From the NCBI GenBank assembly GCA_000165345.1, contig CM000433.1, positions 736,001-800,000 on the forward strand: a stretch of 64,000 nucleotides of DNA, in the 5' to 3' direction. Of the stretch, positions 2,101-8,864 are shown piece after piece. The translations under genes were made by a program, and so were the position numbers. Each line of letters begins with the position of its first letter. Position 1 is the first letter of the stretch. The notes beneath the pieces were generated by a model that was given only the letters and a program-made list of their open reading frames with translations, was not told the origin of the DNA and did not search any database.

Positions 2101-2290
2101 CTCAGTAACTGTGGGGCGCATGTATACGTCTCTTAGAAATAAAAGGAAGAATAAATAGTAAAATAGTAAAGGAGAGTAAGGTGTGGATATTAAGTGGATT
2201 TCTCTACAATTTCAACTTTGTGAAAAAAAAGGACAATCACAGTCCGCGGTTCTACACGAATTAGGAAAATTAAGCACAAATAGTATAAAA

Positions 2291-2638
2291 ATGGCCCCAA
2301 AAATGTCTTCAAAGAACAATAAAGGTGCAGCTCCAAAGAAGATCCACAAGAAGAAGAAGGAGAGTTACTCTACATATATCTACAAGGTATTGAAGCAAGT
2401 TCATCCAGAAACTGGAATCAGTAAAAAGTCTATGATGATTATGAACAGTTATATCTCTGACACCTTCGAGAAAATCGCTCAGCAAGCTGCTCAGCTTTGC
2501 CAAACTACCAAGAAGGATACTATCGCATCCAGAGAAATCCAAACTGCAGTCAGACTTGTTTTACCAGGTGAACTCGCAAAGCATGCAGTTTCTGAGGGTA
2601 CTAAGGCTGTTACCAAGTTCACTGGAGGACAAAAGTAA
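2291..2638 (+). CDS. H2B: Histone H2B (115 aa).
   Basis: [115 protein letters not shown] carries the canonical H2B signature ([11 protein letters not shown]...[24 protein letters not shown]). The ATG at 2291 is the first in-frame Met after the upstream ORF start. Confidence 0.95.
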
Positions 2639-3074
2639 GTCAATGAATCTTTTGATTCATTTTATTTCCATTTTCTCCATTCAAGAATCGGGGATCTGGA
2701 GAATCTAGCAGATCTCCTTATCTTAAATGGATCTTCTTTCGGAAACTAATGGGGATATCTTTGGTGTACATGAATTGGATTAGGTTTCTTAACAATTACT
2801 TAAGAAATTTATCCTATCAGTGCTGTTATACTAGAAAGTGATTCCAAGGGCTTATATTTCAAAATTCTAATTCAAGTAATAATAGGATTTAAGTATCATC
2901 AAATATGAATCCAATCAAAGGCTACTTATACCAGGCGTCACTAGACNCCACATTTTCTGTCACTTTATCAACTAAAATAGAATAATTAATGAATATGTAT
3001 ACTATATTTATATTGTTTCTTTTTCACTCTCCTGTCATAAATCTAGCCAGTGAATCTTCTGTTGATGTTGTAAC

Positions 3075-5594
3075 CTAGAGGTGGTAATAGTTTGTTAAAG
3101 AAAAATTTAAGGTAGGTGGAATTTTGCTACTGGATGTTACTCCTTTTGAACTTACCATTCTTTCTATTGCTTTTAGCTCTTTCAATATTTGTACAATACT
3201 AATCCTTTTTGGATAGGAATTCTCCCAACTAACTTTATTTACTTGTAATTCTATATTTGTATTATTTTGAACATTAAGTGTGGAAGAGGAGGTTGGATGG
3301 AAAGATGAAGATGAAGATGAAGATAAAGATTGGGAAGATGAAGATGATGAAAGAANANNAANAANAATGANTNTGGAANTNGNNNANAAGNTGTCATNNA
3401 NCNTNNNNTNGCNNTAGTCCAATAATCTCCTTAAAATGAAGAATATGTGATAATTTTGAAAACCCACAACATCTTGAAACAAGACCTTGGATGAGAGATA
3501 TATTGCTAAACAAAAGTGAGTCTTTAACAGGATTAAGATCTAATGTGGCGCCAGAATAACCAACATAAGCTTGAACTTGGAGATTCCCAAGCCCACCAAA
3601 AGGAGGTTGCCCATTAATCATTTCCCAAAGAATTGCTCCTATAGAATAAGAATCGATTGATTGACAGCGTTCAAACTTATTCTCTAGATATAGTCTTGCC
3701 GGCTCTAGTAGAGGAGAATTAGTTTTAAGAACTTCTGGAGGTAAATAGTTCAGGATTCTATCATCTGAAAGTCTAGGGGAGCTGGAAACCTGGTTTAAAA
3801 ATGAAAATTCATTTTCAATAGAAGAACAATTCAGATTTGGAAAATCCAAACTTGAATTAGAGTCAGTGTTAGTTGTAACTTTCTTATTTCCCAGTATATC
3901 CAAGTAAATACTATCGTTTGGATAAAAAGAAGCTTCCAGTAAACAATGTCCAAAGTCTGCAAGCTTAACTGATAAATCTTCCTCAATTAATATATTAGTA
4001 GGTTTTAAATTTAGATGAAATATACCTCTTTGTTTTAAATACAAACATCCTGTAGCTATTCCTTTAGCAATTTTGATAGCACTTTGAGTATGAATTCCAA
4101 AAGATAAATTATATTCTGGAATTTCTGGCCAAAATGATGGATTTTGACTTCTGGAATTTGGACTTAGAATTAGATTTAAACTGGACATGCTTAAATCCGA
4201 GATATTATTTAGCTCTGATCCAGTATTCATTTCAAAATCGGTTTCAAAATTTGGATTAAAATTTAAATTTGGTATATAATAAGTGAATTCAGGATTCATC
4301 TTAATCTCATCATGACTAACTTTTTCTGAATTGTTATTAATTGTATCTTTTAAATTATAATAATATGGTGGGAAATTCATTTTTATGGATTTTGAATCAG
4401 AATCTTTCCATACACAATTATACATGCAAATACAAGATCCTTTATATAGGAGCTTTTGAAGAGAACCATTATGTACATATTCAGTTATAACACAATGTAT
4501 ATCTGAAGAATAATGACAAAATCCCAAAGTTAAAATTAAACAAGGATGTCTTAAAGACCAAATAAGCTTGCATGTATTTTCCCAAAGCTTTAATTGTAAT
4601 ATCTTCCCTCTAAAGACTTTAATAACAACATCCTTTCCAAGCCATTTCCCAAGATAACAGCAGGAACTACTGGAAAAAACTGTAAACAGTGTGAATTACT
4701 ATTATTCAAAATCTATATATAATATTTAAATTGAAAGAACTTACCTCCCTTACTACATTTGCATGGAAAATCTGTCCTTTCTAACTTTTGGACGAAGATC
4801 AACTGTTCAAAAGGGATATTAATCCCAGAATAACTATATAGATTTAAAGGTCTTGATATGAATAAAGGCGGAAGAAAACTTTTTTTGGTGATTTCAGATT
4901 CAGTTGGATATTTAATAAATTGTCTAGGTAAGAACAATGGTCCAAAAACTAATCTAAATTGTTTAATACAATTGCTTAGCTTAATTCTATGACCAACTTT
5001 ATTAACTCCAAGTGCTCTAGCAATACCATTAGCTGATAAAAGATTGGAAGAAAGTAGCAAATCATCTAATGTTAATTTCTTATGAATGAGCTCAAAATAA
5101 TCATCCAATTCCCAATTTTTTAATAAATCCTTCAATAAATTATCAAATTTTTCTTGATCATGTAATTGATTGTTTTTGAAATACTCTAATTCTGGGTTTA
5201 TATCGTAATACTTTTCTATTCTTGAATTCCCTAATATCTTTCTCTTTTCATTAAACTTCCTGTCAATATTTATAATAGTTTTTGTTTTAAACAAGTTTTC
5301 ATCTATTTTTGGTATTTCATACCTTCCTAAGAAATACCCCCTACTAAACTCCCCAGCTTTATACTCAGATTCATACATACTTCCATCTAATGCTACCATT
5401 ATCCCTTTTCCTTTACGTCCTACTTTTGATACCTTTCCAACAAATTTGCTTTGATCTTTTTCCCTAAAATAAACTATTCCAACTTCTTCTAATATATTAT
5501 AGTAGCTTTGATGGTCTTTAAGTTCAAATTTTTTTTCTTTTGAGTTTAACTCAGTCTCTATACATATATCCCCATTGGAATATATTAACAACAT
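3075..5594 (-). CDS. SAM-domain protein kinase-like gene (TKL-like) in two exons: exon 1 at 5594..4745, a 65-nt intron at 4744..4680, and exon 2 from 4679 down to about 3075. The catalytic HRD is replaced by HLN, so it is probably a pseudokinase. The C-terminus crosses an N-containing low-quality tract.
   Basis: Exon 1 encodes a SAM-like motif (LTLDDLLLSSNLLSANGIARALGVNKVGHRIKLSNCIKQ). A GTAAGT donor sits at 4744-4739 and a TTTACAG acceptor ends at 4680. With those, the phase-1 junction restores the frame into the kinase ORF, which otherwise has no ATG. Exon 2 carries the kinase motifs: VVIKV (VAIK-like), HLNLKPTNILI (HRDLKPxN with D changed to N), KLADFGHC (DFG), PPEVL (APE-like) and SYSIGAILWEM. 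The Gly-loop is degenerate (LGKWLGKD). The 3' end frame is obscured by Ns at 3355-3420; ORF 3075..3482 probably supplies the Ser-rich C-terminal tail. Confidence 0.75.
3301..3420. repeat. (GAAGAT)n / GAA-GAT trinucleotide-type coding repeat (poly-Ser on the minus strand), followed by a run of ambiguous N calls at 3355-3420. There is also a single N at 2947.
   Basis: The stretch gaagatgaagatgaagatgaagataaagattgggaagatgaagatgatga is followed by about 30 scattered N characters. This looks like a low-quality base-calling region, probably due to the repeat. Confidence 0.8.
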
Positions 5595-5780
5595 TTTTTT
5601 GCTTACCTTTTCTATCCATCCGATAAATAGAAGTGTTTCAAAAGAGTTAATCTACATAACACACAGCATAAATGCACAAAAACTTTCCGTATCGGTACTT
5701 CATCATTTACTAATTATTCTCTTTTATTTTCTCTCTTGACATTAATTTAATTTGTGCAAATCTTTAGTCACTCAAAATAG

Positions 5781-5834
5781 TTCCCGCCATGTGGCGCCAT
5801 GTGGGATTTTTTTATTTCATTTTGCATGCAATGG
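5781..5834. promoter_or_regulatory. Tandem E2F-like elements (TTCCCGCCATG + TGGCGCCATG) followed by TTTGCATGCAATGG, in the divergent kinase / acyl-CoA synthetase intergenic region.
   Basis: ttcccgccatgtgggcgccatgtggg ... tttgcatgcaatgg. The exact string at 5781-5805 is ttcccgccatgtggcgccatgtggg. Confidence 0.45.
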
Positions 5835-6310: not shown

Positions 6311-6812
6311 AATGCATTATAAATAAATACTAAGATAATAAGTTAAAGATTAATAAATTAACATTATGAACAAATGTAGTGAGGTACCAAAAAAATATAA
6401 ATTTTTTCAAATTATAATTTCTTATGGTTGAGTATTAAAGTGTTTTTAACATTGGATTTATAGGATTTAACAATTATTAATTTTTTTAATTTCTTAATAC
6501 GAAATTTAAACAATTATAATAATTATATTTCAAGTTTAATCTCTTTTTGAAGACTAAATTTCAATTAGTAAATATAATAGACTTAATTTTGAATAATAGT
6601 ACTAAGCCAAGTTTATAATCTGATTTGAACTTCGAAATTAATGTATTTTAAATCATAAAAATTTCAAGGTTTAGTTCAACAAATATATAAATATATATAT
6701 ATTTATTTATATGTTAAATATATAAATTTATTAATTCAATTAAGAAAATCCAGGAATCCGATAAAATTTGAGGACAAAAAAAAAGAGATAAGTGAATATT
6801 ATTGGAACTAAC

Positions 6813-8864
6813 ATGGGGAACATTACTTCAAACGTTTTTTATCAACATGATGATTTTATTTACTCCTGTCCAATAGAAGGAACAGGAGATTCAAATTCAA
6901 CTGAAATAAGACGCTGTAAAGAAACGATTAACTCTGAACTCACTTCAAATTTTCATGAAAAGTTGGAAAATTGCTGGGGAATCCTTCTTCACGGAAAAGA
7001 AGCTAGCAATAATGGTGACTATATGGGTGTTAGGGTGCCATTAAAAAATGGAGAATTGAGTGACTATAAGTTTGTAAAATATTCGTACGTAATAAGAAAA
7101 GCAAAAGAAGTGGGAAGTGGCTTACTTCATATTGGAGCAGTCCAGGAAAGAAGTTTTGAAGATTGTAATATAAAATTGAAATGTGTTGCGTTATTTGCGA
7201 AGAACTCTCTTAACTGGTCAATTACTGAGCAGGCTTGTAATGCATATGGAATTTCAACAATTCCTCTTTATGATGTGCTTGGAAATAGTGGATTGACTTA
7301 TATTTTGAATTCAACATTACCAAAGACAGTTTTCTGCTCGGTTAGTTGTTGTAAGAAGCTAATTCCATTACTTGAATCAATGAAGAGTGTTAAGTTTTTA
7401 ATTATGTTGGATAATGAGTCAAAGTTAATACAAGAAAGTGCTACTGATTATATAAAAGAAAATGTTACAATTATGGATTTTGATGATCTTATAAAAATCG
7501 GCAAGAGTAACTTGAGAGAGGTTTCACCTGGTAATTTGGAATCAATCCACTCAATCCATTACACATCAGGCACAACTGGTAATCCAAAAGGAGCAGTTTT
7601 AACTAATAGAGCTTGGGTTTCTTGTACTGCTGCTTTTGTATATGGACAATTGGGGCGTGAAGGTACAAAACTTGGCTCTAATGATAGACATATTAGTTAT
7701 CTTCCTCTTGCACATATTTTTGAAAGAATTGTTCATATGGTTATAACTTATTTGGGTGGTAAGATAGGTTTTTATAGTGGTGATGTCCAGAAAATTGTTG
7801 ATGATATCCAACTATTTAAACCAACGATTTTTATTACAGTTCCTAGAGTTTTGAATAGAATCCACGATGAAGTTATGATGAGTATTGAAGAAAAGCCAAA
7901 ACCATTACAGATGCTTTTCCACTTTGCTCTTAAACAGAAAGAAAGAAGTAATTCTCCTTTCCATTTTATTTGGGATTCAATTATCTTCAATAAGACCAAG
8001 AAAATCCTTGGAGGTAATGTTAAAGCAATTTTGAGTGGAGCTGCTCCATTAGATGAGACAGTTTTGACCAGAATAAGGTGTTTTTCTTGTTCTTATTGTT
8101 TTGAAGGATATGGTATGACCGAACTTCTCGCTGCTTGTATGTCTGAAATCAACGATAACTCCAAAAATATTATTGGTGGCCCCCCTGGATGTTATGAATT
8201 TAAACTTGTTTCAATCCCTGAGATGGATTACAGTGTGAAAAATGATCCTCCTACTGGAGAATTACTTATGAGAGGTCCCTCTTCCTTCAGTGGGTATTTT
8301 AGAAATGAAGAAGAAACCAAGGCTGTAAAGTGTGAGAAGGAAGGTTGGATAAGGACTGGGGATATTTGTCAGCTTCTCCCTAATGGCTCTATTAGAATAG
8401 TCGATAGAAGAAAGAATATATTCAAGCTTTCTCAAGGAGAGTATGTAGCTCCTGAAAAACTTGAGAACATATTTGTGATTTGTTGTGAACTAATATCCCA
8501 GGCACTTGTTATTGGCAGATCAACTGAAAGTTTCTTGGTTGCAATTTTTGTTCTTGATGAAGAATTTACCATGAAATATGTAAGAACCAATCAATTAGGA
8601 GATGATTTGAAATTCAAAGACGCTGTTACCCACCCTAAAATTATTGAGAAAATCAAATTAGACATTGAAAAGGCTGAATTGCAACACAAAATTCTCGGTT
8701 ATGAAAAAATTAGAGCATTCAAATGTATATCTACACCATTTTCTGTCGAAAACGAACTTCTTACCCCAACTTTCAAAGTTGTTAGGCACAAAGCCATCAA
8801 GTTCTATGAGGAATCAATTAATGAAATGTACAAGGATGGCTACTCAAAACCTAAGAATGAATGA
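6813..8864 (+). CDS. Long-chain fatty-acid-CoA ligase (acyl-CoA synthetase, AMP-binding family).
   Basis: AMP-binding motif I YTSGTTGNPKGAVLTNRA, motif II EGYGMTE, and motif III WIRTGDICQLLPNGSIRIVDRRKNIFKLSQGEYVAPEKLE. The first ATG is at 6813 (MGNITSNV...); the ORF track start at 6792 is a GTG. The stop is at 8862-8864. Confidence 0.9.
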   Translation: MGNITSNVFYQHDDFIYSCPIEGTGDSNSTEIRRCKETINSELTSNFHEKLENCWGILLHGKEASNNGDYMGVRVPLKNGELSDYKFVKYSYVIRKAKEVGSGLLHIGAVQERSFEDCNIKLKCVALFAKNSLNWSITEQACNAYGISTIPLYDVLGNSGLTYILNSTLPKTVFCSVSCCKKLIPLLESMKSVKFLIMLDNESKLIQESATDYIKENVTIMDFDDLIKIGKSNLREVSPGNLESIHSIHYTSGTTGNPKGAVLTNRAWVSCTAAFVYGQLGREGTKLGSNDRHISYLPLAHIFERIVHMVITYLGGKIGFYSGDVQKIVDDIQLFKPTIFITVPRVLNRIHDEVMMSIEEKPKPLQMLFHFALKQKERSNSPFHFIWDSIIFNKTKKILGGNVKAILSGAAPLDETVLTRIRCFSCSYCFEGYGMTELLAACMSEINDNSKNIIGGPPGCYEFKLVSIPEMDYSVKNDPPTGELLMRGPSSFSGYFRNEEETKAVKCEKEGWIRTGDICQLLPNGSIRIVDRRKNIFKLSQGEYVAPEKLENIFVICCELISQALVIGRSTESFLVAIFVLDEEFTMKYVRTNQLGDDLKFKDAVTHPKIIEKIKLDIEKAELQHKILGYEKIRAFKCISTPFSVENELLTPTFKVVRHKAIKFYEESINEMYKDGYSKPKNE

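Follow-up and report, generated by a model that had tools for sequence, protein, structure and literature searches.

Among apicomplexan parasites, the closest described relative of the gene considered here is PfpTKL of Plasmodium falciparum, a MORN-SAM pseudokinase devoid of the glycine triad, in which the Asp of subdomain VIB is replaced with Asn (Gnangnon et al. 2019, PMC6544628). Its activation loop bears an insertion of ~50 residues, and its N-lobe is separately annotated as 'BTK-like' (PMC6544628). PfpTKL binds ATP, even with the DFG motif mutated, and displays neither kinase activity on MBP or extracts nor ATPase activity; the N1272D revertant (Asn to Asp) was still inactive (PMC6544628). 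The SAM domain of the protein binds SERA5 and its RVxF motif, restricted to Plasmodium, binds PP1, while pTKL is dispensable in P. berghei blood stages (PMC6544628). The published pTKL phylogeny contained no Cryptosporidium sequence (PMC6544628). In this work we analyze a gene of Cryptosporidium parvum which, judged by its sequence, is probably the Cryptosporidium ortholog of pTKL. It is a single gene on the minus strand of chromosome 5 (5594..3024), located in a 64,000-nucleotide stretch of contig CM000433.1 (assembly GCA_000165345.1, positions 736,001 to 800,000), further referred to as the window, whose base composition is that of AT-rich, eukaryotic DNA; coordinates below are those of the window unless stated otherwise.

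Related kinases are known from both genera. The SAM domain of PfTKL3 (PF13_0258) drives self-association and is needed for activity, SAM-SAM cross-talk was suggested, and two more P. falciparum SAM/MORN kinase-like proteins lack catalytic residues (Abdi 2010, PMC2933843). The C. parvum kinome list comprises intact triads only, and the present gene (cgd5_3180/cgd5_3190) is not included in it (Artz 2011, PMC3227725). In the literature searched for cgd5_3180, cgd5_3190, CPATCC_002445 and Cryptosporidium pseudokinases the gene was nowhere described as a pseudokinase or a pTKL.

The old models cgd5_3190 and cgd5_3180 represent one gene, given as a whole by the merged 806-aa model CPATCC_002445 (P0013), whose residue numbers are used below. 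The locus is one intact, conserved three-exon gene, and on sequence evidence it is a Cryptosporidium member of the apicomplexan/chromerid pTKL family. We consider its product to be a pTKL-family pseudokinase acting as a non-catalytic, possibly nucleotide-binding scaffold, with a probability of about 80%. Pseudokinases are defined at the sequence level by the loss of at least one of three residues (the VAIK Lys, the HRD Asp and the DFG Asp), and in this protein the HRD Asp is absent; its inactivity we infer from the Plasmodium relative PfpTKL.

Kinase Core and the Catalytic Loop

According to its sequence and predicted structure, the kinase core has a TKL-group fold of the RAF/CTR1-like type. 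The protein matched the Pfam profiles Pkinase (67.8 bits at a cut-off of 31.7) and PK_Tyr_Ser-Thr (65.8 bits at a cut-off of 23.1), both of which recognized all six Cryptosporidium orthologs, and a phmmer search of PDB sequences returned Arabidopsis CTR1 as the top match, followed by B-Raf and C-Raf; CTR1 and RAF kinases also headed the results of the profile search. The AlphaFold2 (AF2) model, computed from a 62-sequence alignment (the six-sequence Cryptosporidium run, with a mean predicted local distance difference test score, pLDDT, of 34, was not used for the kinase domain), had pLDDT values mostly >90 in the N-lobe and C-lobe. When this model was compared with known structures using Foldseek, RAF kinases (B-Raf, C-Raf) appeared on top with target-normalised template modelling (TM) scores of 0.71-0.77, and the TKL pseudokinase ILK ranked ninth. 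The landmarks of the domain are as follows.

4663..4679 (first base of V284 at 4745), minus strand: glycine-loop position V-FSSSS, residues 284-289, to which IGAGSFG of CTR1 aligns in the profile alignment
4618..4620, minus strand: beta3 (VAIK) Lys K304, kept, invariant in Cryptosporidium
4579..4581, minus strand: alphaC Glu E317, kept
4099..4434, minus strand: insert 1, residues 366-477, separating the N-lobe/hinge from helix alphaE, pLDDT <50 over 372-475
3994..4017, minus strand: catalytic loop HLNLKPTN, residues 505-512, with the Asn507 codon AAT at 4009..4011
3949..3957, minus strand: DFG, residues 525-527, Asp kept, Phe varying by species (DVG, DIG)
3766..3924, minus strand: activation-segment insert, residues 536-588 (53 aa), pLDDT <50 over 542-585
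3733..3741, minus strand: PPE (APE equivalent), residues 597-599, P598 and E599 invariant
3300..3368, minus strand: Ser-rich tract SCSSSSSSSSSSQSLSSSSSSSF, residues 720-742, a TCATCT-type microsatellite (Tandem Repeats Finder, TRF: 3302..3347, period 6)
3156..3206, minus strand: subdomain XI Arg R774 (3204..3206), invariant, and the exon-2 part of helix alphaI, KRISIVQILKELKAIERM

An earlier note on this DNA, made from the sequence alone, had described a SAM-domain kinase with VAIK Lys, DFG and PPE preserved and with HRD changed to HLN. All three preserved elements were located, and the replacement itself was confirmed: Asn507 stands at the catalytic-base position in the Pfam match as well as in the CTR1/B-Raf and profile alignments. 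The segment FHLNLKPTN aligned without gaps to VHR(D/N)LKSPN of CTR1 and IHRDLKSNN of B-Raf, and a profile of the six Cryptosporidium orthologs gave the same register of the catalytic loop against CTR1, scoring higher with the kinase-dead CTR1 D676N (3p86, 76.3 bits) than with the wild type (3ppz, 72.9 bits). Neither single-sequence nor profile alignment put any other Asp at the catalytic-base position. Besides the substitution of the catalytic Asp with Asn507, Leu506 replaces the Arg, while the Mg-binding Asn512 is kept. The motif HLNLKPxN does not vary among C. parvum, C. hominis, C. canis, C. andersoni, C. bovis and C. ryanae, and HRD is restored in none of them, so the Asn is not a sequencing error; N507 is also invariant in a 16-sequence family alignment. 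The prediction of a catalytically dead scaffold, made in the same note, is supported by this invariance within the genus and the family and by the inactivity of PfpTKL.

The degenerate glycine loop had been read by the same note at LGKWLGKD. The loop is indeed lost, but at VFSSSS (284-289), whereas LGKWLGKD (293-300) is the beta2-beta3 segment opposite 'AEWHGSDV' of CTR1. The glycine-loop position is Gly-free in all Cryptosporidium orthologs and straddles intron 1, whose location coincides exactly with the missing loop. The features kept are the beta3 Lys, alphaC Glu, catalytic-loop Asn, DFG Asp, APE Glu, alphaF Asp and subdomain-XI Arg; K304, E317, HLNLKPxN (505-512), D525, G527, P598, E599, D626 and R774 are invariant in the six Cryptosporidium sequences. 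At the K304 position Lys is found in the myzozoan relatives and Arg in the metagenomic HKN group (see below).

The strongly conserved core is interrupted by three fast-evolving disordered inserts. In comparisons of C. parvum with the non-hominis species, two core blocks, those flanking insert 1, are 62-87% identical and the APE-alphaH block 47-75%, in contrast to 2-29% in the inserts: identity in insert 1 is 2-4% to C. bovis/C. ryanae and 29% to C. canis, and in the activation-segment insert 9-26%. Insert 3 (691-768) lies between helix alphaH and the conserved alphaI helix and has pLDDT <50 over 695-767, while the AF2 helix 777-804 behind it reaches 86-96. The poly-Ser tract, supposed by the earlier note to be a trinucleotide-encoded element of the C-terminus, proved to be repeat-encoded (a hexanucleotide by TRF), although it is not C-terminal to the fold, being situated within insert 3 before helix alphaI. 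Its length varies among isolates and species, also within the same 90% cluster, from ...SLSSSSSSSF (P0013) and ...SLSSSSSF (P0017) to ...SLSSSF (C. hominis), and the microsatellite could be used as a typing marker.

Gene Structure and Assembly Quality

The gene model comprises the following elements.

4745..5594, minus strand: exon 1, residues 1-283 and base 1 of codon 284, an open reading frame (ORF); the spliced translation equals P0013
4680..4744, minus strand: intron 1, 65 nt, GTAAGT...ACAG, phase 1
3156..4679, minus strand: exon 2, the remaining kinase domain with the three inserts, equal to the finished assembly except 3352..3416
3075..3155, minus strand: intron 2, 81 nt, GTAAGT...CTAG, phase 0, spliced in P0012 and P0013
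3024..3074, minus strand: exon 3, 51 nt, VTTSTEDSLARFMTGE followed by the stop codon TGA (3024..3026)

The product of exon 1 comprises the MORN-like repeats, the SAM domain, a linker and the beginning of the kinase N-lobe (IPFEQL motif and beta1 region). The acceptor of intron 1 at 4680 is the only one that preserves the frame, and the junction, ...CSKG followed by VFSSSSCCYLGKW, is the same in the merged models P0012 and P0013; it is common to the merged public models of C. parvum (806 aa, CPATCC_002445) and C. hominis (802 aa). Older annotations stop at intron 1 and thereby split the gene: these, and several recent ones, contain a 'hypothetical/SAM domain protein' of 293 aa and, separately, a kinase fragment of 448 aa lacking the N-lobe. 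In the protein search the C-terminal 448 residues matched, with 100% identity, a 'Ser/Thr protein kinase' of the C. parvum group, whose 90%-identity cluster holds entries of C. parvum Iowa II, C. hominis and C. tyzzeri.

The two-exon structure ending at 3075, which the earlier note had assumed, had to be replaced with three exons and an end at 3024, position 3075 belonging to the stop of the unspliced reading. C. parvum, C. canis, C. bovis and C. andersoni share the GTAAGT donor of intron 2, located at the same helix boundary, and each has an in-frame acceptor; after the acceptor the last exons end in ...AEDSLTRFMTGE (C. canis), ...EEDSLTEFMTGSY (C. bovis) and ...AEDVLTGFMTGH (C. andersoni), each directly before the stop. 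This exon is absent from the public models of the latter three species, which end in or just after intron 2, and from older C. parvum and C. hominis annotations. The regions with the missed exon are:

C. andersoni, L003 ~3790..3953
C. bovis, L004 ~4070..4175
C. canis, L005 ~3810..3949

An upstream mini-exon (ATGGATAGAAAAG followed by GTAAGC, ~5618..5601) was considered as the N-terminus and rejected: the sole downstream acceptor would delete the conserved MORN segment SNGDICIE, and the merged public model starts at 5594.

The window was identical to the finished C. parvum assembly CP029784.1 (L002) over 2751 bases (2950..5700) with the exception of one stretch.

3352..3416, no strand: low-quality stretch with 25 Ns (3356..3414), four extra bases and one mismatch

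In comparison with CP029784.1, which reads ...EIIGHSKKRLMTSSIQFPQSCSSSS... across this stretch, the spurious bases are those at 3416, 3415, 3368 and 3352, and the mismatch is at 3412. The four extra bases shift the frame artefactually, so that a false in-frame TGA appears at 3394..3396; across the frameshift region the finished sequence is ...EIIGHSKKRLMTSSIQFPQSCSSSSSSSSSSQSLSSSSSSSFHPTSS.... The Ns seen by the earlier note at the Ser tract in fact adjoin it and lie only partly within it, and the spurious bases with their false frameshift come in addition. Since finished assemblies resolve 3352-3416, resequencing is unnecessary.

Accessory Domains and the C-Terminal Tail

Two accessory modules precede the kinase domain: putative MORN repeats and, between these and the kinase domain, the SAM domain.

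5322..5486, minus strand: degenerate MORN-like beta-hairpin repeats, ~residues 37-91, AF2 hairpins at 40-91 with pLDDT 64-85
4932..5168, minus strand: SAM domain, ~residues 143-221, AF2 helical bundle with pLDDT 87-95

With Cryptosporidium sequences alone the Pfam MORN profile gave no significant result (one ortholog at E=0.25, no significant match in C. parvum), whereas the family N-terminal profile, Cryptosporidium rows included, matched MORN1 at E=9e-32, with G39, G53, G62 and G64 invariant. As for the SAM-like module of the earlier note, the C. parvum sequence taken alone stays below the Pfam threshold (SAM_2 E=0.02, SAM_1 E=0.07); the assignment is upheld by the orthologs, four of the six in Cryptosporidium matching SAM_1/SAM_2 (best E=5.8e-5), by the AF2 model and by the family SAM profile, which matches PDB SAM domains of liprin, SARM1 and CNK down to E=2e-19.

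Exon 3 encodes the C-terminal motif EDSLARFMTGE, whose family form is (E/D)(D/E)(A/S)LxxF(M/I)xG. The motif is likewise C-terminal in Vitrella, Selenidium (where it takes the closely similar form ETELLRFMDGV), the pTKL of P. vinckei and P. knowlesi and metagenomic relatives; the Chromera protein continues beyond it with a C-terminal extension. The same tail, (E/D)(E/D)SLxxFxxG, was observed together with HCDLKSSN in the active-looking TKLs P0060, P0088 and P0103 (in P0034 as a variant); P0103 also has an intact glycine loop, and P0034 and P0060 begin with Met-Gly. The occurrence of the tail in active-looking HCD TKLs suggests that the motif is older than the loss of the catalytic Asp and marks a wider subfamily.

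Relatives and Membership of the pTKL Family

Word-index homolog searches, started either from the protein alone or from the family alignment, retrieved almost nothing beyond Cryptosporidium. In an exhaustive profile search of 1.84 billion representatives the Cryptosporidium sequences were followed by Selenidium pygospionis (E=7e-45), Vitrella brassicaformis (3e-39) and then metagenomic eukaryotic proteins, with Chromera velia and Plasmodium vinckei lower. All these relatives have Asn at the catalytic-base column (HLN, HKN, HSN, WLN or PLN, within the pattern H/W/P-x-N-L-K-P-x-N), all are without a glycine loop, and the IPFEQL pre-kinase motif and the C-terminal tail or its close variant are common to all; most start with Met-Gly-Asn. 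The extension of the pTKL family to Cryptosporidium, a gregarine and chromerids would imply that the catalytic Asp had been lost by the time the Apicomplexa radiated.

Metagenomic relatives of 413-539 aa (L006 3189..4751 from JGI metagenome 3300022752, and the proteins P0025, P0028, P0031, P0043, P0049, P0077 and P0104) come from eukaryotes whose genes are arranged compactly and apparently without introns. This group reads HKNLKPSN, has lost both the VAIK Lys (VVIR) and DFG (DYF) and ends in the almost invariant SANSAAEDALITFISGR.

A neighbour-joining tree of 144 TKL domains, based on distances only and on blocks modelled on the pTKL family itself, was constructed. The smallest clade uniting Cryptosporidium and Plasmodium had 23 members (Cryptosporidium, Plasmodium, chromerids, Selenidium and the metagenomic relatives), none with the catalytic Asp; the other 121 domains were all outside, and the bootstrap of the clade was 100/300. 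The P. falciparum sequence P0194 matches the landmarks of PfpTKL (PF3D7_1106800), with MORN at 19-63 and SAM at ~299-364, and the spacing RKVLF 1219 / N1272 / DFG 1290 is exactly as published, with a strain offset of 61 residues. Among five Cryptosporidium orthologs no positionally conserved RVxF PP1-binding motif was found. The motif is restricted to Plasmodium (PMC6544628) and so characterizes that subgroup and not the family as a whole. Because of this restriction and the lack of a conserved RVxF, this function is not transferred: neither RVxF-mediated PP1 binding nor erythrocyte export is predicted for Cryptosporidium.

Proposed Function and Alternative Explanations

Under the pseudokinase interpretation, the protein would transfer no phosphate, and its folded, possibly ATP-binding pseudo-active site would serve as a conformational or scaffolding module. 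The SAM domain could provide protein-protein contacts or oligomerisation, plausibly with the active SAM/MORN TKLs cgd8_2430 and cgd3_4310, and the MORN repeats may anchor the protein at a membrane or the cytoskeleton.

Two other readings of the locus are refuted. That HLN arose by a mistake in sequencing or assembly, or that the locus is a decaying pseudogene, might be suspected from the Ns, the frameshift and the in-frame stop at 3394..3396 in the window and from the division of the locus into two ORFs in older annotations. The probability of this is negligible: 3994..4017 is clean and the same in the independent finished assembly, all differences being confined to 3352..3416; the ORF is intact in other assemblies; the same Asn recurs in every Cryptosporidium species and in distant relatives; and two of the three core blocks retain the high identity given above. 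It is also highly improbable that the locus consists of two independent genes, a SAM protein of 293 aa (cgd5_3190) and a kinase-like protein of 448 aa truncated at its N-terminus (cgd5_3180), as they were kept in the original C. parvum Iowa II, C. hominis TU502 and several recent annotations. The 448-aa model begins after beta5, without the entire N-lobe, which is found in the unannotated gap (YLGKWLGKDVVIK...ITEY) and, as regards its first strand (IPFEQL...), inside 'cgd5_3190'; a phase-compatible 65-nt GT..AG intron connects both parts, and the AF2 model represents one continuous kinase domain.

HER3 and JAK JH2 are metazoan pseudokinases with Asn or another residue in place of the HRD Asp, and slow phosphotransfer is reported for some kinases with Asn at the catalytic position (HER3, JAK2 JH2). 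The C. parvum protein might accordingly be a weakly or unconventionally active kinase, Asn507 supporting slow phosphotransfer or the pocket a different nucleotide-dependent reaction. Strict conservation covers K304, E317, N512 and D525 within a deeply diverged genus and N512 and D525 within the family, and such a pocket needs an explanation, for which nucleotide or metal binding is the obvious one, PfpTKL being an ATP-binding protein. We nevertheless regard activity as unlikely, as the glycine-rich loop is missing in every family member, PfpTKL had no kinase or ATPase activity on three substrates and was not rescued by restoration of the Asp, and the Phe and Gly of DFG, and even the VAIK Lys, drift in other branches (DPN, DFA, DYF, VVIR), which speaks against a conserved catalytic requirement. 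A further, tentative possibility is that the MORN-SAM module with Asn for Asp and no glycine loop is ancient, and that its pocket and the EDALxxFxxG tail form a nucleotide-dependent switch controlling active SAM-TKLs via SAM hetero-oligomers; such allosteric control may operate in the manner of KSR-RAF or HER3-HER2. The module is spread over chromerids, an archigregarine, Cryptosporidium, Plasmodium and metagenomic eukaryotes with compact genomes. If this were true, the protein would be a central regulator of TKL signalling in Cryptosporidium, with its three recognised TKLs, and not a redundant scaffold.

Several points weigh against the preferred interpretation of the protein as an inactive pTKL-family scaffold. 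Its inactivity is an extrapolation from a relative with which it shares ~20-25% overall identity in the kinase core, and the kept Lys, Glu, Asn and DFG Asp are also to be expected of a low-activity or unconventional kinase. The protein has neither the Met-Gly start present in most relatives nor a conserved RVxF, which means that predictions of partners and localisation are not directly transferable. The Asp-less clade is weak in bootstrap terms (100/300), with family-derived blocks and neighbour-joining distances only, and PfTKL1, PfTKL3, PF3D7_0926000 and the other C. parvum TKLs are not identifiable by name in the tree, which leaves orthology at the level of probable. Finally, the whole-gene ratio of non-synonymous to synonymous substitution rates (dN/dS) of 1.27 for C. 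parvum compared with C. bovis (PMC7371110) could be read as relaxed constraint; the region-wise identities explain this value by fast inserts beside a conserved core, without invoking decay.

Neighbouring Genes and Intergenic Elements

The gene is flanked by the following features.

2183..2638, plus strand: histone H2B gene, convergent, downstream neighbour
2934..2949, plus strand: stem-loop GGCGTC-ACTA-GAC(N)CC followed by ACA, with a perfect 6-bp stem and a 4-nt loop, between the H2B stop (2638) and 3024
6792..8864, plus strand: AMP-binding acyl-CoA synthetase-like gene, divergent, upstream neighbour

The order of the neighbours (H2B and the acyl-CoA synthetase-like gene) is the same in C. 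parvum, C. canis and C. bovis, and in C. andersoni a mitochondrial-carrier gene takes the upstream place. The stem-loop, located ~290 nt downstream of the H2B coding sequence and on its strand (the opposite strand reads ATGTGGCGTCTAGTGACGCC), resembles the 3' stem-loop of histone mRNAs. The element is conserved without change in C. parvum, C. canis, C. bovis and C. andersoni and occurs once in the window, 0.02 occurrences being expected by chance; its match to the Rfam family Histone3 is weak (11.5 bits, the gathering score being 34; E=9). An isolated N at 2947, inside the stem-loop, is the only ambiguous base of the window besides those in 3356..3414. Upstream of the start codon, at a distance of ~190-210 nt, the otherwise AT-rich intergenic region contains a GC-rich repeated motif, cccGCCATGTGGCGCCATGTGGg (5784..5805). 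Its GGCGCC core is reminiscent of E2F-like sites, which we take to be common upstream of Cryptosporidium genes.

Significance and Comparison with Known Systems

The gene was already annotated in public databases, and the family has been characterised in Plasmodium. What is new is the assignment of a Cryptosporidium gene to the pTKL family, the Asn fixed throughout the genus, the gene model of three exons, the last of which is conserved and was overlooked in several species, and the family-wide C-terminal motif. Gene models accordingly need merging of the two ORFs and addition of the 51-nt last exon. The work adds one pseudokinase to the very small signalling repertoire of C. parvum (three TKLs), and drug discovery should not approach the annotated 'Ser/Thr protein kinase' as an ordinary ATP-competitive target. 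For kinase and apicomplexan specialists there is little surprise in it, and the proposed mechanism rests on the Plasmodium homolog.

Kinases of the CTR1/RAF family are the best matches of the kinase core both in sequence and in structure, and the Asn of HLN occupies the position of CTR1 D676N (PDB 3p86). The relation is at the level of the group (~15-30% identity): these kinases have no MORN or SAM, possess intact glycine loops and are without the three inserts. ILK, retrieved by structure, and likewise HER3 and JAK JH2 have lost the catalytic base while keeping the fold and part of the nucleotide-binding apparatus, and perform scaffold or allosteric roles. Such metazoan pseudokinases represent independent losses in unrelated lineages and carry other accessory domains, so the likeness is one of working principle only. 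The active TKLs PfTKL3, PfTKL1, cgd3_4310 and cgd8_2430 have the order of MORN, SAM and C-terminal TKL kinase domain that is predicted here; they possess intact catalytic triads and measurable activity, whereas the protein described here is without the catalytic Asp and the glycine loop.

Plasmodium pTKL (PF3D7_1106800 / PBANKA pTKL) differs in size, the Cryptosporidium protein (806 aa) being about half as long as the Plasmodium one (1483 aa), and in the catalytic-loop His, which is kept in Cryptosporidium and replaced with W or P in Plasmodium. The Cryptosporidium protein, in turn, is without RVxF motifs and the Met-Gly N-terminus, has PPE for APE and carries a third, Ser-rich insert. Otherwise the two have in common MORN motifs at the N-terminus (degenerate and putative in Cryptosporidium), a SAM domain and a kinase domain of TKL type, in which a long insert parts the N-lobe from the C-lobe (in P. 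falciparum, the 'BTK-like domain' and the kinase domain proper), the glycine triad is missing, the Asp of subdomain VIB is replaced with Asn, DFG is kept and the activation loop bears an insertion of ~50 residues; the tail EDAL..FM.G at the extreme C-terminus is common to P. vinckei and P. knowlesi pTKL and the Cryptosporidium protein.

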